Of a stretch of 64,000 bases of DNA, positions 51 through 21,845 are shown piece by piece. The stretch spans positions 328,209-392,208 of the forward strand of contig CAVYNY010000016.1 in NCBI GenBank assembly GCA_963769935.1. Reading direction: 5' to 3'. The notes beneath the pieces are model-generated. The model was not told the origin of the DNA, did no database searches, and saw nothing but the letters and a program-made list of their open reading frames with translations. Numbering within the stretch: the first letter of the stretch is position 1; every line of letters begins with the position of its first letter. Source of the stretch: an uncultured delta proteobacterium (GTDB lineage: Bacteria > Desulfobacterota > Desulfobacteria > Desulfobacterales > JAFDCJ01). Position numbers and translations under genes: made by a program.

Positions 51-2426
51 ATGGATTTGACGCGAATACCTACCTATGAAGAATTAGAGGAACGGGTTCG
101 GGAGCTTGAAAACGCGGAACGCGAACGCAAGGAGGTCGAAGAGGCTCTCCGTCAGGACGTGGACAAATTCCGGCGGTTGTTCGAACTGGAGTCGGACGCG
201 CTGGTCCTTATCGACAACGCGAACGGCCGCATCCTGGAAGCCAATCGATCGGCGACCGAGATCTATGGCTACAGCCGGAAACAACTGTTAAAACTGCGCA
301 ATGTCGATCTTTCAGCCGAACCGCAGCGCACCAGTCAGGCCACCCGGGACGAACTGCCGATAGTACCGGTGCGCTACCACCGAAAAAAAGACGGGACCGT
401 CTTTCCGGTGGAGATCACGGGGAGCCACTTCGAATGGCGGGGCCGCAAAGTGCACATCGCCGCCATCCGGGAAATCGGCTGGCGCCTGCATATTGAGGAG
501 GAGCTTCGGGCAAGCGAACAAAGATACCGGACCCTGTTCGAACGGAATCTAAACCCCATCGCCATCATCGATAGGACCGGCCGGTACATTGAGGCGAATC
601 CGGCGTTCCTTGAATTTACGGAAAAAACCAAGGAACAACTCCTGCAAATGACCTACTTCGATTTTGCGCCTCCGGGAAAAGAGGATATCCAGGAAAAGTT
701 AAGTCGCTCGTTTTGGGAAACCGGAGGGACCTTTGAAAAAGAATATTTTATCGACGGAAAGCTGAAAATCCAGGAACTCACCGTCTCGCCCATTTCCTAC
801 CGGGGGACCGATGCGGTGGTCGGTGTGGGAAAAGATATTACCGAACGCAAGCGGTCCGATGCCAACCGGAAAAAAATGGAAGAAGAACTGATAAAACGCA
901 ATCAATTCATTGAAACCATTTTGGATAATCTACCCATCGGATTGGCTGTCAACTATATCGATGAAGGAAAAGCAACCTACAGCAATAAAAAGTTCGAGGA
1001 AATATACGGGTGGTCGAAGGAGGAGCTTGATGATGTCGAAAATTTCTTTCAAAAAGTTTATCCGGATCCCGTGTATCGAGAGAAAATAAAAAGGCAGGTT
1101 TTCCAAGATATTCAATCCGGGGATCCGACAAGAATGATTTGGGAGGGCTTGGAGGCAACGGGAAAAGATGGACGCAAAAGGATTATTTTCGCCAAGAATA
1201 TTCCTCTCTTAGAACAGAACTTGATGATCTCTACGGTTCAGGACATTACTGAAAGGCAATACTTGCAGAACCGGCTCCAGCAGGCGCAAAAACTGGAGGC
1301 CCTCGGCACACTGGCCGGCGGTATTGCCCACGATTTCAATAATATTCTGTCGGCGATCATCGGATACACAGAACTTGCGCTGGATTCCCCTGAAAAGAGC
1401 ACAACTTTCCACGATAACCTGCAGCAGGTTTTCGCCGCCGGGATGCGGGCGAAAGAACTGGTAAAGCAAATATTGGCCTTTGCGAGACAGTCGGAAGAAG
1501 AGCTCAAGCCGATTCGGCTGGATAAAAGCGTACGTGAGGTGCTTAGATTCATTCGCTCATCGGTTCCCACAACGATCAAAATAGAGCGAAGCCTGGAGAC
1601 GGATTCCGTTGTCATGGGCAACGCCACTCAAGTCCATCAGATATTGATGAACCTATGCACCAATGCCGCGCAGGCCATGGAGGCAGAGGGCGGGGTACTG
1701 GAAGTCAGCTTAAAGAGTGCCAAAATTGACGGCAGCTACCAAACAGGAAAAACGATATTGAAGCCGGGAGAATATGTCGAAATCAAGGTGTCGGACACGG
1801 GCGTCGGTATTTCACCTGATATTATCGAGTCCATTTTTGACCCGTATTTTACCACCAAGGGGCCGGGCGAAGGAACCGGCATGGGCCTGGCGTTGGTTCA
1901 TGGAATTGTCGAAAGCTACGGCGGGAAAATTACGGTAGACAGCAAACCGGGAGCGGGAACCGTCTTTACGATCTACCTGCCGAAGGTAAAAAAGCAAAAG
2001 GAAATTATCTCTCACGAAGCGGAAATCCTGCCGGGCGGAACCGAACATATTTTGTATGTTGACGATGAGCTTCCTCTCGCCAGCATGGGCGGCCGCGCCC
2101 TTGAAGGTCTGGGTTATACGGTGACGACAAGAACCAGCAGCGAGGAGGCGCTGGAGCTTTTTCGGGCCAAACCGAACGAATTTGATCTGGTTATCACCGA
2201 CATGACCATGCCCCATATGACGGGCGATCAGCTGGCGGCTGAAATGATGAAAATACGGTTTGATATCCCGATTATTCTTTGTACCGGATACAGCAAAAAA
2301 ATATCGGGCAAAACAGTATCCGATATCGGTATCAGGGCTTTTGCATACAAACCCATCGTAAGGGCTGATTTGGCCAAAACGGTCCGCAAAGTGCTGGATG
2401 AGGCCAGTCAGAATTCAAAAGCTTGA
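51..2426 (+). CDS. Multi-PAS hybrid sensor histidine kinase with C-terminal receiver domain
   Basis: Three PAS-like repeats, H-box [12 protein letters not shown]-box [15 protein letters not shown], receiver LYVDDE...DMTMP. Confidence 0.95.
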
Positions 2427-5233
2427 AAAAGATTAGAATTCTAACAGGCAAATGGGTGCCGGTGATCGGGCTATCCGTAACGATAATCTCGTATGGCTTT
2501 ATCACCTATTTGGCCGTCCTGCTGGGCAGCCTCCAATTCGAGACAACGCCTCTGCCTCACAAGCCCCCGGTTGAAGATGTCTTCTTTCTCGTCTATGCCA
2601 ACTATCTGGAATATACGTTGCAGCGAGGCATTCTCTGGTTGGGAATCGCCGCATCATATCTTTTCCTGCCGGGCTTGGTCTCCGCCCTTCTCTCACTGCC
2701 GGTTTCTTTGGCGTGGAGACTCCCACTGAGGGTTCTCGTCCTTCGCCGCTTCGGAGCGCGGAAGAGGAGCAGGAGCCTTCGAAAAGCGCTTCGACAGCGC
2801 GTGGCCCCCATGGGTCACGTGTACACCCTGGCAGACCGGGACTTCAAGACGCCGTGGTACATTCGGTTTCCGCTTATCTTCGCGCAGCTCGTTTTCCTTC
2901 ACTTTCGAGAGCGTCGGATCAGGTCGCCGAGAGGCATCCGCCGTGTCTCCTCAAGCCTCGACGTTCTCTGGGCTCGGAATATAAACTGGGTGGTATCCTT
3001 TTCCAAGGCGTTCTCTTTGCGTTCTTCGGACACGGTCTGGAGAGATCTGGTCCAATCTCTCACGGCCAAGGTCGAGGCAGTACTTATCGATGTGCATGAG
3101 GGTTCCCCCAACCTCGAGTGGGAGATTAGAAAGTGTGTAGAGGAAAACTATCTGCACAAGACCATGTTCATGACCCCGGGCGATCGGCGCGAAGAGGCGG
3201 TTTGCCTGCTCGCCAAGCTTGGGCTCGGACACCTAACCGGCGATAAGCTCGTCGTCTACGACACAGTCGGGTTGGAAGAAGACGCGCGACTTCGCACCTT
3301 CCTTGAGTCGCGCCAGGCCTTGGAACCTCGGCCGGGTCGTGCTCGGCTGACGAGCCACTTTAAGGCCGCCTCGGTCATGATCGGACCGATCCTATGGGTA
3401 CTGATATTGTTTGTCGCCCTGCACGCTTTCCTGGGGGAAGACAGACACCCAGAAGCGAACCGTTTCGGGCCTCTCGTTGGGCGTCTCCGGCAAAAGCCGA
3501 CCCGGGACGCAGCGTTCGGCGATTTGCATCGCGCCGTGTCCATATCAGGGACAACACACAGCGCTCCATGGATTGATGATTTCGATAAGGCCGTCACACC
3601 GGAGCTGAAAGAGCTGTGGGAAGACGAACCGGGCCGCCGGCGGGAAATCTTGGCCGTACTTAAAGATGCCGGCACCCCTGGTGGAGCTGAGATCTGGAAG
3701 CGGGCTCTCTCGGACGCCGGGCAAGTGGGCGGACTGACCTTCGATGAGGTCATCGGGGGTATCGCCGCTGCGCGTTCGACAAAAAACCTTCCGGATCTTC
3801 TCAAACTATTCAGGCAGGGTGAGCCTGATACGCGGCTCAAGGTCCTCCGGGCGCTGGGTGAGCTTGGGGATAACTCGGTCGTCCCCATCCTCCTGGCCGA
3901 TATTATTCTACAGCCCGAGGGAGCGCAACCGCTTAAACTGATGCAAGAGGCGACCTCGGCGCTTCAGAAGATCCTCCGTCCCAAACCACCGTTACGGGCG
4001 ATCGGGCCTAACAGCAAACCGGCCGCGCTCATTGCCGTGCTCAGTTGCCCGGGATCCGATCAGGCTTCACTCCTGTACAGACTGATGCCCTTCATTGCCA
4101 ATAGCCATTGGAAGCAACACAACACAAATTTTCGCGGCACCGAGCCGAAGATTATACTGTACGGGAAGATTGAGACCCGAGATCTCCTTGTATCGTACCC
4201 GACGACAGCAGGGTACCGAGTCTTTCAAGAGTTTCCCGATCTGAGATATCGGTGGAGCGGCCTGATGGAGTACGGAGAGCGGCTTGATGCCGTCTTATTG
4301 GAGGTGAGCGCCACTCGCGGTATCGACGCCTTAGTGAAGCAACACGTCGCCGTGGCCCATATGCTGGGCATTCCAAGAGTGGCCGTGCTTATCAACACCG
4401 GGAATGCCCCGTTAGAAACGGGTCGCCTCGCCTCGTTGGAAAGGGAACTGCACGAACTGCTGGGCGGGACCGGATTCGTTGATTCAAACGTGGTCATCGT
4501 GGCTGGTCCTGTGCCCAATGTGGACGAAATTTTCAACGACAATGCCGCTCGTACCGGTGTCAAAAAGCTCTTTGCGGCCATCGACGCTTGGCCGACGCGC
4601 CCGGCGCTGGCGGAGCGACCGACGCGTTTCCCGATCGGCGGCGTCTTTCAGATTCCTGACAAAGGTACGCTGGTAACCGGATTTCTTGAGCAGGGTGTCC
4701 TATCGCCGGGAGACGTTCTGGAGGTCGCCGGCGACACCGCCGGCGCGCAGGTGGTGGCGGGTGAGCGCCTCGACTTTCCGGGGTCTGATGATGTTGTGGG
4801 ACTCTGGATTCGAGACGGAAGAACCGAGCGGTTGCGGGCAGGTCAGGTCCTGGCGCAGCCCGGCACGCTTACGGCCCACGACAAATTCGCAGCCTGGGCG
4901 TATGTGCTGTCGGAGGAAGAAGGCGGCCCGCGCAACCTTGTTGTCGGCACGATCGGCGGCGTGCAGGAGGAAAAGGCCGCCTTTTCTCCGGGCGCGGTAT
5001 TCGCGTTCCAGTTCTGCAATGCGTTTGTCAGCCCCAAGCACCTGCGTTGGGGCTCGCAAGTGGACACACCGCCCGAAGAGTTGCGGCTGGCAGATTTCAA
5101 ACCGGCCCGGGGCTGGGTCACTCTTGAGGTAAGTTTGGAATATCCGGTTCCGATTCAACGCGGTCAGCGCTTCCGGCTCTTCTCCGACGGCGAGCTCGTG
5201 GCAGCCGGAGCAGTGACGGAGGTCATAGAGTAA
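2423..5233 (+). CDS. Membrane protein: TM helices + TIR/NDT-like domain + HEAT repeats + degenerate EF-Tu (G, II and III domains, GTPase motifs lost)
   Basis: C-terminal ~405 aa colinear with EF-Tu by eye (FPIGGVFQIPDKGTLVTG, GQVLAQPGTL, YVLSEEEGGPR, GQRFRLFSDGELVAAGAV); HEAT-like RLKVLRALGELGDNSVVPIL. Confidence 0.8.
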   Translation: MKKIRILTGKWVPVIGLSVTIISYGFITYLAVLLGSLQFETTPLPHKPPVEDVFFLVYANYLEYTLQRGILWLGIAASYLFLPGLVSALLSLPVSLAWRLPLRVLVLRRFGARKRSRSLRKALRQRVAPMGHVYTLADRDFKTPWYIRFPLIFAQLVFLHFRERRIRSPRGIRRVSSSLDVLWARNINWVVSFSKAFSLRSSDTVWRDLVQSLTAKVEAVLIDVHEGSPNLEWEIRKCVEENYLHKTMFMTPGDRREEAVCLLAKLGLGHLTGDKLVVYDTVGLEEDARLRTFLESRQALEPRPGRARLTSHFKAASVMIGPILWVLILFVALHAFLGEDRHPEANRFGPLVGRLRQKPTRDAAFGDLHRAVSISGTTHSAPWIDDFDKAVTPELKELWEDEPGRRREILAVLKDAGTPGGAEIWKRALSDAGQVGGLTFDEVIGGIAAARSTKNLPDLLKLFRQGEPDTRLKVLRALGELGDNSVVPILLADIILQPEGAQPLKLMQEATSALQKILRPKPPLRAIGPNSKPAALIAVLSCPGSDQASLLYRLMPFIANSHWKQHNTNFRGTEPKIILYGKIETRDLLVSYPTTAGYRVFQEFPDLRYRWSGLMEYGERLDAVLLEVSATRGIDALVKQHVAVAHMLGIPRVAVLINTGNAPLETGRLASLERELHELLGGTGFVDSNVVIVAGPVPNVDEIFNDNAARTGVKKLFAAIDAWPTRPALAERPTRFPIGGVFQIPDKGTLVTGFLEQGVLSPGDVLEVAGDTAGAQVVAGERLDFPGSDDVVGLWIRDGRTERLRAGQVLAQPGTLTAHDKFAAWAYVLSEEEGGPRNLVVGTIGGVQEEKAAFSPGAVFAFQFCNAFVSPKHLRWGSQVDTPPEELRLADFKPARGWVTLEVSLEYPVPIQRGQRFRLFSDGELVAAGAVTEVIE

Positions 5234-5615
5234 CCCGCCTTTAGGCACCCCTCTTACAGCGTAACAAGGACCCCTCTAAAAATTGATTCACCAGGAATTG
5301 ATGCGTGGCCCGACCCCCAATCCGAATCCGGTCAAATTTCGGATTGCCTTGACTTGACATATTCCAATGGCCATATTTCCTGATTATCTGTTGATATTCT
5401 CCATCCGGCCATATCCCTTCACACGTCTCTTGGAAAGGCCCGAGTTGATAGAAAGAATCTATCGAAGCCTATTTTAAAGATCTGAAACCAGATTTTGAAG
5501 ATGACGATACTATCATCAAAATTGAATTTACTATTGAATGATGGTTCTGTCATATGATGTTCTTGCGGGGCTGAATATGCTGTGTTAACTGCTGCGGGCA
5601 TTCTTATTATAACTC

Positions 5616-7139
5616 TCACGCCGCGGGTACGGCCTTGCGGGCAATGAGCGGTACCAGGACGGCACCGAGCGCGCAGGTGACGAGCAGGTACGTCATGGCG
5701 CCGCTGTAGCCGACCATAAAGGAGTGCTTGAAGATCGGCAGGATCTCGGCCTCGAGGCCGGCGGTGAGCTTGCCCAGCACCTGCAGGACTTGGCTCGGGT
5801 CCGAGAGCAGGCTCCTGACCAGGTCCTGATCTTGGCCGCTGAGCACGATGTGATGTTGTGCGAGCGCGGCCGTCAGACTGCGCCGGTCGAGCTCCTCGAA
5901 TATCAAGCCGCCGATGGCCAGCCCGACGCTGGAGCCGAAATTCCAGATCGAATAGAGCACGCCGATGATCAGGCTCGCCGAGGCCGGAGGGAAGGCCGAG
6001 GTAGCGGCCAGCGCCGAGGTCGCCTGTTGCAGTCCCCAGCCGAACCCGAAGAGCCCTAGGCCGACCAGGACCAGCCACACCGGGCTCGCCGGCTCGAAGA
6101 AGATCTGCACCAGCGCGGCAATGGCCAGGAAAATCTGTCCGGCGACCAGGAACGGCATCGGCCCGTTACGATCGACAAGTTTACCGATCACCGGCGGGAC
6201 GATGACCACCAGCGATGAGATCGGCAGCAGCATCAAACCGGCGACATAGGGAATTTCATTGCGGACGGTCTGTAGGTAGAGCGGCGCCATGAAACTGCCG
6301 AGGGCGATGAAGCCGCCGAGCGTTAGGGCCATCACGCTGCAGGCTAAAAGTTGCGGACGTCGCAGCAGCTTGAAGTCGATGATCGGCGACGATACGCGCC
6401 TCTCGATCCCGATGAAAACGCTGAGTAAGACCAGGGCGGTGGCGCCGGTCGCAAGGGTGGCCGGCGCATCCCAGCCCCAGTTGTTGCCTTTTATGATCGC
6501 CGTTACCAGCGCCGCCATTCCGGGGGTCAGAAAAGCGAGACCCAGCCAGTCGACCCTTTCGTGCATCAGGCGCGGCGTCTCCTCGACCGACCGCCAGGCG
6601 ATGGCAAAGCCGAGGATGACCACCGGCACGTTGACATAGAAAGCCCACCGCCAGGAGAGCGCCGAGAGGCACAGGCCGCCCAGCACCGGCCCTACCGCCA
6701 TGCCGAAGCCGGTGACGCTCATGAACACCGCCATCGCTCTCCCCTGCTCGGCTTCGGGAAAGTGATGGCTCACCAAGCCGACCGCGCAAGTCAGCACGAT
6801 CGCCCCGGCAATGCCCTGAGCGAACCGGCAGGCGATGAGGAACTCCGGATCTTCAGCCGTCCCGGCCAGAAACGACGCCAGCGCAAAGACAATCACACCG
6901 GTGTAGAGGACGCGTCTACGGCCGTAGATGTCGCCGAGCCGCCCCATCGTGACCATGAACACCGTCAGCATCAGGAAGAAGGCGTTCATCACCCATTGCA
7001 ACTCGTCGACACTGGCGTGAAGCTCCCGTTGAATGCCGGGAAGGATGGTGTTGACGATGGTGAAGTCTATGAAGACGACAAAGCTGAGGATGCTGATCCC
7101 GATCAGGGCCAGCCAACGCTTTTGAGATTCACCAGCCAT
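5616..7139 (-). CDS. MFS transporter, DHA2 (EmrB/QacA-like) family
   Basis: DFTIVNTILP motif, GRLGDIYGRRR motif A, about 14 hydrophobic segments. Confidence 0.9.
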   Translation of the reverse strand: MAGESQKRWLALIGISILSFVVFIDFTIVNTILPGIQRELHASVDELQWVMNAFFLMLTVFMVTMGRLGDIYGRRRVLYTGVIVFALASFLAGTAEDPEFLIACRFAQGIAGAIVLTCAVGLVSHHFPEAEQGRAMAVFMSVTGFGMAVGPVLGGLCLSALSWRWAFYVNVPVVILGFAIAWRSVEETPRLMHERVDWLGLAFLTPGMAALVTAIIKGNNWGWDAPATLATGATALVLLSVFIGIERRVSSPIIDFKLLRRPQLLACSVMALTLGGFIALGSFMAPLYLQTVRNEIPYVAGLMLLPISSLVVIVPPVIGKLVDRNGPMPFLVAGQIFLAIAALVQIFFEPASPVWLVLVGLGLFGFGWGLQQATSALAATSAFPPASASLIIGVLYSIWNFGSSVGLAIGGLIFEELDRRSLTAALAQHHIVLSGQDQDLVRSLLSDPSQVLQVLGKLTAGLEAEILPIFKHSFMVGYSGAMTYLLVTCALGAVLVPLIARKAVPAA

Positions 7140-7362
7140 TCTTTCCCCCTTTACGAACAGATGCCGTTGTGGTCTCGGGCACCTTTTCCGGAAGACGACC
7201 ATCGGTCGGTGTGTCCCACCCCCGGCCGCTGACGCAGGGTTCGTCGGAAGTAAAAATATAAGAAATCGCTGCTGTCCCGTTAAAATTCATATCATAATCA
7301 CTAATCGCGGTTTGACACCCATTTCCCCGGTAATGCGATATTCGAGTCCGGTCACTTTTCTA

Positions 7363-7587
7363 CTAACGAGGCAGGTATGCAGAATCAACTACAGAAAAGT
7401 CGGATTCGCGAATGATGAGTCGGACGTTACGACCTTTTGCATACATGTTTGTTCGCACAGACCAGACCTTTTCTCCGGAAGGCAGCGACCGCAATTGTAC
7501 TTCGACAGGTTCGATCCAAGGCCATGACTGATCAGACACAAATGATTTGGCAACTTTGATAATCTGTTCTTTTATGATTTCCATCAC
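7363..7587 (-). CDS. Small protein, candidate immunity protein
   Basis: 74-aa ORF immediately downstream of an HExxH toxin-like gene. Confidence 0.45.
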   Translation of the reverse strand: MMEIIKEQIIKVAKSFVSDQSWPWIEPVEVQLRSLPSGEKVWSVRTNMYAKGRNVRLIIRESDFSVVDSAYLPR

Positions 7588-7596
7588 ATTCTCTCG

Positions 7597-8590
7597 CTAT
7601 TCTGGAGGTGCGCACACCGGCGGCGGAGAGGCAACGACGACTTGCACTGAAAACCTTTGTGTCCCCACTAGGATTGTCCCAATCTCAGAACCCTCGAAGA
7701 CAAGCTGCTGGAGGGTGACATAGCCGTTCGCAATCGGGAATCGTACTCCTCGCAGGAGACCAATGACACCATAAGCCGCAAGCTGACCGACACTTTCAGC
7801 CAAAGCCTCCTCAAGGTATTGCAGGATTGCCGAGCGCATATAAGAAGACATCGCGAGGCGGGCACGAAAAGTTCGCAAGACTCCCAGCCACGGGGATAGA
7901 AATCAATGAACCGGTTCATGCACCCTCGCCAGCTGTTGTGTAGTTGCGGAACCAGCTGTCGAATAGGTCACATCCCCAAATGCGGTCGTCATCCCCTCAC
8001 CTGCCGGCAGCGAGGCATCTCCCGTCACGGATGGGCGTCGCCATAAACGTCCGGCCTGTACATCCGGCCCCACCTGGGCTAAACCAGGATTTCGAGGTCG
8101 TATAGCGACAGCTACGATTGTCCCGCGTGTGGCCTGAATATTACGCGCGCTTCTATGCAGGAAAAGAGCCATTACAGCAGTCAATCCTCCAGTTACGACC
8201 GCTCTTGCGAATGCTTGAGCGGCAATATCAATATCCTCATCCGTACGCGCATTAATGGATTTGGTTGCGAAAATTAGTAGGTCTTTTGCAACATCCGTGA
8301 TAGACCATCCTACAAAAAACGCCCCCACTAAAAGAAGTCCAACATCGACTATTTCACCAACACCAAAGAAATGTGAACCGGCCCAAATACCGAGCGTGCC
8401 GACTAATATGACCAGTGCTTGCGGTGTAAGGAGTGGACCAATCTGATGTGCCAGGTTGGCGGGCATATACGCTTTTGAACGTAGTGATCGCCTCCTTAAC
8501 GCGATCTGTACCGGAACAAGAGGTAGTAAAACGCGGCACGATAATCTCCTGAATTTCCGCCGCCGCCGGTGAGCAGTGGCCCAAGCTCAT
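7597..8590 (-). pseudogene. Toxin-like protein with hydrophobic N-terminal region and HExxH metallopeptidase motif, interrupted
   Basis: ORFs 7903-8466 and 7597-7878 are in frame across one TGA: HEPVH*FLSPW...YLEEALAE; a probable frameshift lies near 8470. Confidence 0.55.
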
Positions 8591-19468: not shown

Positions 19469-20324
19469 ATGAGAAAATTGCCTGCCGAACTGTTATCATC
19501 CTACAAAGTCTTGTTAGTTTCAAAAAATATTCCTGAAGGATATCACGCCCATTATCTGAAATGGCTGCGATACTATTTGGATTTTTGTAATAAATATCAA
19601 TTCAACGAATCCAATCCGAAAAGCCTCCCGGATTTTATCGGGAAATTAAACAGAAAAAAGGCAATCTGCCGCTCAACAAAAACAGGCCGATTTGGCGGTC
19701 CGTTTTTATTACGAAATAATTCAGGCAGAACATGATGAATCCCGGGAAAAATCTAACCGAAAACCGGAATCTCCTTTAATCATTAAAGAAAATCCAAAAT
19801 CTTTCCAGCCGCTTTCTTTTAAAGCCAAATTTAAGCCAAGTTCAAGCAAGCAAGCTCCAGAGAAGAAAATTGCAGCTTATAAAAATCTTAATGAAAAATG
19901 GAACGTCACCCTAAACGACCTGGCCAATGAAATAAAGGTCAGGCACTATTCACCAAAGACGCTGAAATCCTATTCCACAAAAAAGTACAAAAACTGCGCC
20001 AAAGAGTTTGTTTGGCAGTGGTTTTTTCCTGCCAAAACGCTCACATTTGTTCCCGAGACCAGGGAATACCGCCGATATCATCTCCACGAAACTCACGTTC
20101 AAAAAGCTATCAAGCGGGCGGTCAACAAAGCCAAAATCCCCAAACGGGCCACGTCTCATACCTTCCGCCACAGTTACGCCAGCCATTTGCTGCAGGCCAA
20201 CTACGACATCCGCACGATACAGGAGCTGCTAGGCCACAGCGATGTCAGAACCACCATGATTTATACCCATACCGTCAAAAGCGTCACCATCAAAGAGGCC
20301 AGAAGCCCGCTGGATTTCGAGTGA
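19469..20324 (+). pseudogene. intI: Integron integrase, frameshifted and internally deleted
   Basis: [11 protein letters not shown] joined directly to the IntI-specific insertion KKY...WQWFFP...[15 protein letters not shown] and [15 protein letters not shown] retained; box I absent. Confidence 0.9.
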
Positions 20325-20809
20325 TTTCATGAACCGGTATTAACGCCCTGCTGGCTGGATTCTGGTTAATGGTTTGGGAATGCCAGCTTGATGTTCAACG
20401 AGATTCAGAGGCGGTTTTTTATCGCTTCAAAAACAATCATCCCGAATTCCAGAGATCGCTTTCTATGTAACTTTTTTCGTAAAATTTTTCAATATTACAG
20501 CTACTTGCCCGAAATCGGCAATGTAAACAGGGTAAGGAACCGGGGAAAAAATACACGCATCCGCTCGTCTGGAGTTCCATTCCAATGCCATGCTGGGGGC
20601 CCACCCAAATCCATTATCTAAGCGCGTGTATTTTTTATGTAAAACTGCTTTGCAGTTTTATTTCGGGGTGAGAATTTTAGACTTGTTTTTTAATAATAGC
20701 CGAAAAAATGTTAGATGTAAATCCGCATTTATACTCATAATCAAATGCGTATTAATACCTAACGATTGAGTAGAAATACCTAATCTCGAGAAGGCTAAAG
20801 GTTAAAGGA

Positions 20810-21080
20810 GAAAGGTTAAAGGATAAGGTGCTGCTTGAATCGGGGAGGCGGTGAAACGGAGAATCGGGGAAACGGCGAAAAGAAAGAAGGTGAGAAGATC
20901 AGAAGCCCAGATTAAGAAACTGGGAAACGGCGGGAAAGAAAGAAGGTGGGAGACGAATAGAGGGCCAGAAGGTGAGAGGGTGCGAGGGTGGGAAAGGGAT
21001 AGAAGATCAGAAGCTGAGAAGATCAGATTAAAAAACGGTATTGAAAGGATACAATGGAGAAACGGAGAGTGGTGGTGAGT
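20810..21080. repeat. Purine-rich degenerate 7-8-mer tandem repeat tract
   Basis: GGAGAAAC/GAAACGG/AGAAGATC units; related tract at 25580-25770. Confidence 0.75.
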
Positions 21081-21156
21081 TTTTCTCAATTTATTGACAT
21101 CATCCAGCTGCATGATATATATTTTGGTATCTATCAAAATCAACCGGAGGTGTCCC

Positions 21157-21387
21157 ATGCAAACTGCAAAATTATTCATTAATGGCCGCAGCCAGGCTGT
21201 AAGACTGCCAAAAGATTTCAGGTTCTCCGGCAATGACGTTTTTATAAAAAAAATCGGAAAGATGGTCGTCCTTTTCCCAAAAGAAGACCCCTGGTCCTCA
21301 TTGGTCAATAGCCTTGATCAGTTTACCGAAGACTTTATGAACGACAGAAATCAACCTAATCAGGATTCTCGGGAAAATTTCCGATGA
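21157..21387 (+). CDS. vapB: VapB/AbrB-family antitoxin
   Basis: TAKLFINGRSQAVRLPKDFRF. Confidence 0.92.
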   Translation: MQTAKLFINGRSQAVRLPKDFRFSGNDVFIKKIGKMVVLFPKEDPWSSLVNSLDQFTEDFMNDRNQPNQDSRENFR

Positions 21388-21845
21388 AATTCATGCTTGA
21401 TACAAATATTTGCATTTATATCATAAAGCGAAAACCACCTGTTGTAATAGAACATTTCAGGCAAACTAAAATTTCTCAAATCGGCGTCTCTGCGATTACA
21501 CTCAGCGAACTTTCATATGGTGTTTCGAAGAGTTCAAAGCCGGGACAGAATCAAGTGGCTTTGGCTCAGTTCATTGCGCCGCTTGAGATCTTGCCCTATG
21601 GCGATGATGCCGCTCAATATTACGGCAATCTTAGAACTCATTTGGAAAAACAAGGAACGACCATTGGTTCTCTTGATATGCTAATCGCCGCTCATGCTCT
21701 TTCAATTGGCTGTACCCTAGTTACCAACAATGTGAAAGAATTTGTCCGAATACCGAATTTAAAGGTCGAAAACTGGGTGAAGGATAGAAACGGACGCACA
21801 CCTCGGCGCTTAGCGCAAACCGCGCAAATTCTCCCGTCTGGATGA
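21384..21845 (+). CDS. vapC: VapC PIN-domain toxin (C-terminus possibly read-through)
   Basis: MLDTNICIY, DMLIAAHA, LVTNNVKEF; ATGA overlap with vapB. Confidence 0.92.
   Translation: MKFMLDTNICIYIIKRKPPVVIEHFRQTKISQIGVSAITLSELSYGVSKSSKPGQNQVALAQFIAPLEILPYGDDAAQYYGNLRTHLEKQGTTIGSLDMLIAAHALSIGCTLVTNNVKEFVRIPNLKVENWVKDRNGRTPRRLAQTAQILPSG

Follow-up and report, generated by a model that had tools for sequence, protein, structure and literature searches.

A multi-pass membrane protein joining a TIR/NDT-like domain to a degenerate copy of EF-Tu in an uncultured delta proteobacterium: a possible Toll-like conflict receptor

The 64,000-nucleotide (nt) stretch of DNA analyzed here (hereafter the window; positions 328,209-392,208, forward strand, of contig CAVYNY010000016.1, assembly GCA_963769935.1) comes from an uncultured delta proteobacterium (Desulfobacterales; JAFDCJ01) and contains, at 2423-5233 on its plus strand (feature coordinates count from the first letter of the window), a gene for a 936-amino-acid (aa) protein that, read from its N-terminus, consists of two transmembrane (TM) helices, a TIR/NDT-like domain, a third TM helix, HEAT repeats, and a copy of EF-Tu whose GTPase motifs have been lost. 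This architecture is real, conserved and undescribed, and belongs to a kind for which published work offers predictions but no tests; the reading that we tentatively prefer, holding it to be not quite an even call, is that of a one-gene, Toll-like conflict receptor, in which a periplasmic EF-Tu-derived ectodomain would sense incoming proteins and activate a cytoplasmic nucleotide glycosidase.

The open reading frame (ORF) starts with a TTG codon overlapping the stop codon of an upstream PAS hybrid histidine kinase gene and has zero internal stops, an intact frame that the initial annotation, made from the letters of this DNA, had already pointed out and that is notable because the assembly is indel-prone (the frameshift-rich character of the DNA, also described then, extends to both ordinary tuf genes of the genome, on contig C22, which read with frameshifts). 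As the genome has these two ordinary tuf genes, the EF-Tu of the 936-aa protein is an extra copy. Homology to EF-Tu begins near aa 531 (nt 4013) and takes in the C-terminal 406 residues (aa 531-936, 4013-5230, domains I-III), and the likeness through all three domains that was first noticed by eye is borne out by phmmer against the PDB (best match E 2.2e-29), by a Smith-Waterman score of 282 against E. coli EF-Tu (the maximum of 500 shuffles being 61), and by Foldseek, which matched the AF2 model of aa 340-936 (30 sequences, pLDDT 82.9) to EF-Tu over three domains (E 5e-27, target TM-score 0.86). The NCBIfam EF-Tu models scored below their cut-offs (106.8 bits vs. 449; 104.4 vs. 522.4), and a SelB or CysN origin of the C-terminal part was ruled out by the NCBIfam and Smith-Waterman comparisons, the latter giving 291-319 for the EF-Tu of relatives vs. 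116 for the genome's own SelB. Identity to E. coli EF-Tu amounts to 19/35/30% for domains I/II/III, and the nucleotide-binding motifs are replaced just as first described, the P-loop G1 (aa 541-548, 4043-4066) reading SCPGSDQA for GHVDHGKT, G3 (aa 603-606, 4229-4240) EFPD for DCPG, and G4 (aa 658-661, 4394-4405) NTGN for NKCD; G5 is likewise gone (SAL to PVP), which leaves one of the 16 key G-motif residues.

A family search of 1.84 billion representatives gave 1607 matches, and among the best 150 of these 1607, which were listed, the full architecture was found in four further clusters (P0006, 926 aa; P0007, 1053 aa; P0008, 1104 aa; P0011, 1053 aa), so that it is kept in five full-length 50%-identity clusters when that of the window's protein is included. 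P0006 stems from a Verrucomicrobiae metagenome-assembled genome (MAG; locus L010), the partial P0003 from a Deltaproteobacteria MAG ends within a recognisable P-loop, P0014 and P0022 represent C-terminal fragments with the same kind of degeneration, and a Planctomycetota MAG (locus L011) has a split form, a TIR-like gene followed 5 bases on by a TM-HEAT-EF-Tu gene (gene B, L011:3659-5923, in which a weak MotA/ExbB-like segment, E 0.019, was also seen among the TM helices, before the HEAT repeats and EF-Tu). The number of G-motif residues kept out of 16 falls from 16 in P0008 and 15 in P0011 through 8 in L011 gene B and 4 in P0006 to 1 in the window's protein and 0 in P0007; by this gradation the death of the GTPase is a derived state, and its loss is not a trait of the family. 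In a FastTree phylogeny of 132 N-terminal domains all seven EF-Tu-linked rows fell within one 13-row clade (SH-like 98), together with P0154, a close relative that ends after the HEAT repeats and has no EF-Tu, while most of the family members carry HEAT repeats without EF-Tu and others have WD40 or FGE-sulfatase in the ectodomain slot. A single capture of EF-Tu is probable, within one clade of a larger receptor family with interchangeable HEAT, WD40 or FGE-sulfatase ectodomains; the copy would first have retained its GDP site (P0008, P0011) before being remodelled in the lineage of the window's protein; the EF-Tu tree itself, a quick tree in which long branches meet, is not one from which a single origin of the fused EF-Tu is demonstrable. 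The distribution is patchy across phyla and the gene is rare: no full-length homologue was found in 40 relatives (tuf/SelB-type matches only), the domain profile matched a single genome, and that weakly, of 300 others from the host phylum, 5 of 400 from the phylum of L011 and 0 of 400 from that of L010, and the N-terminal domain had no match among 50,697 phage and 72,556 plasmid records.

That the fusion might be an assembly chimera, a concern voiced in the initial annotation, is ruled out by P0004, a second 936-aa copy (~97% identical) on a separate 9-kb JGI contig in another assembly, and by short-read contigs bridging the kinase/ORF (X2, 2106-2692), TM3/HEAT (X4, 3286-3809) and HEAT/EF-Tu (X1, 3538-4626; X4, 3818-4263) junctions. 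No joints or indels are listed in these bridging contigs; none of them covers the gene from end to end, and X1 could derive from the very sample that gave the window. Runs X9 and X11 hold nearly none of the stretch, and an expression look-up listed no RNA datasets carrying the gene. Among the differences listed for the EF-Tu part in four runs, 52 were unique (25 silent, 27 replacement), giving a pN/pS of 0.37, or 0.44-0.48 with transition weighting, which is not a precise value, 22 rows lying beyond the listed differences and several contigs being shallow; the synonymous excess (binomial p 0.0004-0.006) shows relaxed purifying selection. Where neutral drift and a want of conserved homologues had been named as signs of an accidental fusion, a conserved and selected one was found instead. 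It is very improbable that an old fusion carries its EF-Tu portion as a passenger in slow decay, with function confined to TM-TIR-HEAT: a pN/pS of only 0.37-0.48, the very long branches in the EF-Tu tree and the halt of P0154 after its HEAT repeats would suit such a passenger, but members that share only 21-38% identity still retain domains I-III right up to the native C-terminal position, no indel row accompanies the synonymous excess in the read data, the link survives as a two-gene operon at L011, and 79 of 349 columns are identical across the three distant members compared (the window's protein, P0006 and P0014). As 32 of these 79 columns differ from EF-Tu, a new conserved surface on the remodelled copy is suggested.

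The predicted enzyme at the other end of the molecule (aa 101-281, 2723-3265) had been taken for a Rossmann-like domain, a description that is better recast as a TIR/NDT-like flavodoxin fold, whereas the TM helices and HEAT repeats (aa 346-524, 3458-3994; Pfam HEAT_2 E 1e-4, about ten helices in the model) described along with it stand. With the AF2 model of aa 60-345 (66 sequences, pLDDT 87.9), the top rows of VIA were SEFIR (Z 11.0, root-mean-square deviation (rmsd) 3.2, 128 aligned), TIR-STING (10.7, rmsd 2.5, 124 aligned), MAL TIR (10.4), an IL-17R/ACT1 assembly, a PpnN-like protein and a deoxyribosyltransferase (10.2), and a second look put DNPH1 first (Z 11.0, rmsd 3.0, 127 aligned, 14% identity); TIR and NDT/DNPH1 are not told apart by these scores, SEFIR and DNPH1 being tied at Z 11.0 and DNPH1, PpnN and LOG-type hydrolases scoring as high as TIR. 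By sequence, the domain of the window's protein had no Pfam match to a named family, a PDB search with the domain profile returned TM-helix noise only, and the ESM Atlas returned only unnamed clusters below 0.9. Its conservation is nonetheless strict: in 141 aligned rows (denominators being the rows that cover a position), R108 is found in 137 of 137, D138 in 138 of 139, D or E at 223 in 136 of 136 and E234 in 134 of 135, and R108, F110, L136, W189 and W206 are invariant wherever covered, the family-conserved set of the domain comprising R108, F110, D138, W189, W206, D223 and E234. Glu234 (codon at 3122-3124) lies in a helix (170-181 of the model) that follows the strand terminated by D223, within a pattern S228-x5-E234 whose spacing we take to be that of the TIR and NDT catalytic glutamate, and is, by fold and this spacing, its putative equivalent. 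The domain resembles an immune-type enzyme, adding substance to the N-terminal effector that had been supposed, and is predicted to be an active N-glycosidase acting on NAD+ or a nucleotide through Glu234. It shares with Thoeris ThsB, TIR-STING, SEFIR and NDT/DNPH1 the flavodoxin-like fold (Z 9.6-11.0) and, putatively, a near-invariant Glu in the helix after the central strand, and differs from them in having no sequence-level family match, an insertion of about 50 residues, and TM helices on both sides.

Which side of the membrane the EF-Tu copy faces hinges on a third hydrophobic helix between the enzyme and the HEAT repeats, TM3 (aa 315-333, 3365-3421), which was absent from the initial annotation and is the most hydrophobic segment of the protein (Kyte-Doolittle (KD) 2.51). 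With 4 Lys/Arg in aa 1-13, 1 Lys/Arg and 3 Asp/Glu in aa 33-60, and 12 Lys/Arg and 0 Asp/Glu in aa 99-128, TM1 (aa 14-32, 2462-2518) is predicted to run in-to-out and TM2 (aa ~69-98, 2627-2716, a single long helix in the model) out-to-in, leaving the N-terminus inside and the enzyme cytoplasmic; TM3, with 5 Lys/Arg in aa 295-314 and 2 Lys/Arg and 3 Asp/Glu in aa 334-353, would lead outward again. As this single helix separates the enzyme from the HEAT repeats and the EF-Tu copy, the latter two are predicted to lie opposite the enzyme, in the periplasm (the host is diderm, Omp85 and TamB being present). No segment above KD 1.49, and hence no second TM after TM3, was found in the HEAT linker of six fused members, and among 75 family proteins with a tail of more than 45 aa behind the domain, one hydrophobic segment was seen in 50, three in 13, none in 8 and two in 4. 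The net charge was higher before the segment in 30 and after it in 10 of the 43 proteins with one segment and a long soluble tail, and the last TM ahead of the domain was followed by more Lys/Arg in 119 of 134 family proteins, kin in these counts not being independent. The five predicted TM helices of the split-form gene B likewise place its EF-Tu outside. A TM helix and an OmpA-like stretch (an Atlas lead, 0.91, 105 of 256 shared features), with no TM before the EF-Tu that follows, were also observed in the unrelated P0259 (1401 aa), whose G-motifs are kept.

With its predicted periplasmic location, the EF-Tu copy would not be accessible to Gol, Doc, Lit and Q-beta, for which the initial annotation had proposed it as bait, and it has lost most of the sites for known partners. 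Only two of eight residues of the aminoacyl-tRNA pocket (a list that we assume to describe it) are kept in the window's protein, and Thr382, which we take to be the Doc target, is lost, as is the Arg-Gly (Lit/G2) site cut by Lit and the Thoeris caspase. The 259-264 hairpin is deleted, and with it the contacts with CdiA-NC101 (Glu260/Phe262/Arg263, as given in the accessible part of PMC5737660). Since the partner sites checked are lost here and kept in P0008, the window's copy appears from its residues to be a poor mimic for every partner checked, and P0008 a good one for G-domain binders. That the protein is a cytoplasmic integrated decoy for EF-Tu-targeting factors (Gol, Q-beta replicase, Doc, Lit, caspase), as the bait proposal would have it, therefore seems decidedly unlikely: it needs a TM3 that does not cross the membrane, against its KD of 2.51, the in-to-out charge bias and the lack of a second TM, even if the intact G-motifs of P0008 and P0011 do suit the cytoplasm, the binding of EF-Tu by the T4 capsid and its cleavage by Lit and the Thoeris caspase are documented, and soluble TIR-, caspase- and CHAT-EF-Tu fusions exist.

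Those fusions came from screening for proteins that are long and contain an EF-Tu domain (198 matches, the best 120 of 198 listed, 119 of them besides P0008), in which 13 of the 119 were of a conflict type (caspase 2, CHAT 2, TIR 3, one with TRADD-N, Ser/Thr kinase 2, DUF900 lipase 3, dynamin/DO-GTPase 1), known from protein records and not at the DNA level. Their EF-Tu is 61-74% identical to that of E. coli and, in a quick tree of 40 rows, scattered among ordinary EF-Tus, which suggests repeated capture; the general idea of an EF-Tu decoy, as first put forward, thus gains from EF-Tu having been repeatedly fused to conflict effectors elsewhere, and the soluble TIR, caspase, CHAT, kinase and lipase forms would suit its cytoplasmic version better than the window's protein does. 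A near-intact EF-Tu fused to immune or death domains is seen in TIR-EF-Tu (P0244, P0257, P0270), caspase (P0188, P0268), CHAT (P0228, P0252), kinase (P0261, P0264), DUF900 lipase-EF-Tu (P0124, P0195, P0227, P0277) and dynamin-like (P0215) proteins. Also noticed were P0111 (568 aa), a TM helix plus EF-Tu with a dead P-loop, an aminoacyl-tRNA pocket kept at 8 of 8 residues and domains II-III 60-69% identical, which appears to present the textbook decoy pattern; a small family (P0242, P0243, P0256, P0258, P0263) with an N-terminal TM helix, a charged coiled coil and EF-Tu with an altered P-loop; P0259, P0182, P0222 and P0240, with EF-Tu at the C-terminus and N-termini that are presumably components of vWA-MoxR systems; the stand-alone divergent EF-Tu-sized proteins P0147, P0149 and P0153, keeping 12, 8 and 7 of 16 G-motif residues; and fungal mitochondrial EF-Tu (P0076, P0234, P0266, P0269, P0273, P0274, P0276; Coemansia and Kickxella where named) with an intein-like Hom_end Hint near G3. 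Many other long EF-Tu rows were set aside, being read-throughs between EF-G or IF2 and EF-Tu, fungal genes with inteins, or extensions in a wrong frame.

Might the EF-Tu part, instead of sensing anything, be a built-in structural cofactor, whose open-form barrels brace a HEAT sensor that itself binds the ligand, the fusion having made GTP binding dispensable? The model does fit GDP/open EF-Tu entries better (target TM-score 0.75-0.86) than GTP-analogue/kirromycin-type ones (0.47-0.54), a preference that AF2 may presumably show for any EF-Tu; in the window's protein domain I has diverged more than domains II and III, but P0008 and P0011 have a domain I that is much more conserved than their domain II (54% vs. 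32% and 46% vs. 29%), and HEAT repeats do without EF-Tu in most family members, while caspase, TIR and kinase proteins that have no HEAT sensor carry a fused EF-Tu too. A precedent is offered by Avs7, which, according to the accessible part of 10.64898/2026.01.04.697583, uses GDP/open host EF-Tu via domains II and III as a structural enhancer. The Avs7-EF-Tu-major capsid protein complex (PMC13581612, available in part) is similar in placing a helical-repeat sensor and an open-form EF-Tu upstream of an effector; unlike Avs7, a cytoplasmic STAND ATPase that borrows host EF-Tu, the window's protein has its EF-Tu fused and degenerate and the membrane lying between sensor and effector, and no STAND NTPase domain was matched in it by Pfam, PADLOC or NCBIfam, every region being otherwise assigned. 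All things considered, the cofactor explanation seems improbable.

The surroundings of the gene are relevant to yet another possibility, that of non-immune envelope signalling or nucleotide scavenging, in which the ectodomain would bind some molecule present in the periplasm, be it a misfolded protein, a peptide, RNA or a nucleotide from lysed cells, and tune a membrane nucleotide hydrolase. The absence of a defence context at the window and at L010, the coupling of the gene to a PAS histidine kinase and the level scores of DNPH1-, PpnN- and LOG-type hydrolases with TIR would all fit; the kinase linkage is, however, not kept at L010 or L011, the very sparse occurrence and the exchange of ectodomains are what conflict genes typically show, and the other fusion partners of EF-Tu are death or immune domains, which makes this possibility an unlikely one too. 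A defence-island setting, about which the initial annotation had asked, is found at neither of the two full-length loci with flanks (window, L010), and no ThsA-type or caspase effector partner gene is present at the window, L010 or L011, which sets the protein apart from Thoeris. Six further loci were read, and conflict-type neighbours were found for two distant relatives of the domain only: at L030:7120-16037 (G105), a multi-TM TIR-like protein, a clostripain C11 and a 1871-aa lipase+CHAT protein lie between trpE and trpG, a three-gene cassette that is a candidate for an undescribed TIR-protease system, and at L026:1239-4356 (G556) an nSTAND1-like ATPase is convergent with a distant member of the TIR/NDT-like membrane family.

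Elsewhere in the window, no telling repeats that would point to a mobile element were found in 2200-8000. An integrase fragment and a PIN (VapC-like) gene at 19692-21845, 14-16 kb from the gene, suggest a small mobile patch; a 187-aa hydrophobic ORF without a Pfam match (7903-8466, minus strand, beside other short ORFs) gives the mere impression of a fragment of a polymorphic-toxin or Rhs-type gene; and two similar opposite blocks near the contig end (55601-64000; zinc-type oxidoreductase, aldolase-like and Fe-S genes) are either an inverted duplication or an assembly artefact.

Returning to the receptor interpretation, the steps it would entail are as follows: a cytoplasmic TIR/NDT-like glycosidase, joined by one helix to periplasmic HEAT repeats and a dead EF-Tu, would be switched on when the ectodomain binds an incoming foreign protein, the likeliest triggers being EF-Tu-needing toxin domains of type VI secretion (T6SS) or contact-dependent inhibition (CDI) systems crossing the periplasm and, next, ejected phage proteins; activation would probably proceed by clustering and lead to cell death, dormancy or a second messenger. 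As the window's copy seems to be no longer a close EF-Tu mimic, its ligand has probably been retuned. Several observations weigh against all this. The copy shares only 25-27% identity with the EF-Tu found in its own order, the known toxin-contact surfaces are missing from it, and selection on it is relaxed. The topology comes from a simple hydropathy scan and charge bias, and the intact G-motifs of P0008, P0011 and P0259 sit badly with a periplasm in which a supply of GTP/GDP is not expected. For the enzyme, Foldseek with the aa 60-345 model gave no match at E<=0.001, translation GTPases and other flavodoxin-like folds appear at Z ~10 in the same VIA list, and Pfam TIR_2 matched one of 66 members (E 0.014). 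At the window locus and at L010 the gene stands alone, surrounded by genes for signalling and housekeeping, and PADLOC had no match for the window's protein or for P0006, P0007, P0008 and P0011. Finally, Rhs2 contacts EF-Tu at the GDP site (10.1101/2025.10.28.685041, accessible part), which is remodelled here, and the role of EF-Tu in Tse6 entry is treated as disputed and unresolved in the accessible part of the review PMC7690452.

In plant NLR integrated decoys a copy of a host target sits inside an immune receptor, and in Toll-like receptors an ectodomain is linked by a TM helix to TIR; the resemblance of the window's protein to both is one of analogy only, there being no NB-ARC or LRR and the TIR-like domain being N-terminal to the ectodomain. 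A host-target copy fused to a predicted immune effector, the pattern by which an integrated decoy is recognised, is what its architecture would present. The EF-Tu copy itself shares with functional EF-Tu the three-domain fold and the C-terminal position, and departs from it in its eroded G-motifs and presumed pocket residues and in being fused and membrane-bound. No description of the architecture was found in the literature searched (subscription journals lying mostly outside its coverage), in line with the initial annotation, but the general idea is not new: that conflict systems may use EF-Tu domains and dead enzymes as decoys has been put forward before, by Kaur et al. 2020 (PMC7159879), who list EF-Tu among variable C-terminal domains fused to the EACC1-system caspase, propose that inactive enzyme copies act as decoys and that interception takes place at the membrane, and describe TM plus extracellular domains in the same slot. 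The string EF-Tu did not occur in two supplementary files of that paper, whose source data could list further architectures, and the available parts of Kaur 2021 and of the CoCoNuT paper held nothing relevant to the architecture. Like the EACC1-caspase systems, the window's protein has EF-Tu fused C-terminally to a predicted conflict-type effector; unlike them, it has no EACC1 gene (a PAS kinase lies upstream) and no caspase match, and is a single gene with a multi-pass TIR/NDT-like constant part and a dead EF-Tu that is predicted to be periplasmic.

EF-Tu is well known as a point of attack for phages and for toxins exchanged between bacteria (Rhs2, Tse6 and several CdiA toxins bind or need it, according to the accessible parts of 10.1101/2025.10.28.685041, PMC7690452 and PMC5737660), and a receptor using its own EF-Tu copy as a sensor was not found shown in the literature searched. 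The N-terminal domain, for its part, defines a large unnamed membrane TIR/NDT-like family that is missed by Pfam and PADLOC. A bolder version of the receptor idea, which we regard as rather doubtful, is that this is a Toll-like family of cytoplasmic TIR/NDT enzymes with swappable periplasmic sensors, in one clade of which EF-Tu would trap EF-Tu-dependent T6SS/CDI toxins before their passage through the inner membrane, as part of a repeatedly evolved class of EF-Tu integrated decoys; such a periplasmic trap, if true, would amount to immunity-protein-independent sensing of a whole toxin class and would bear on why Tse6 and Rhs2 need EF-Tu. With an intact-to-dead GTPase series (16/16 to 0/16) available within one architecture, the bacterial integrated-decoy idea becomes directly testable.

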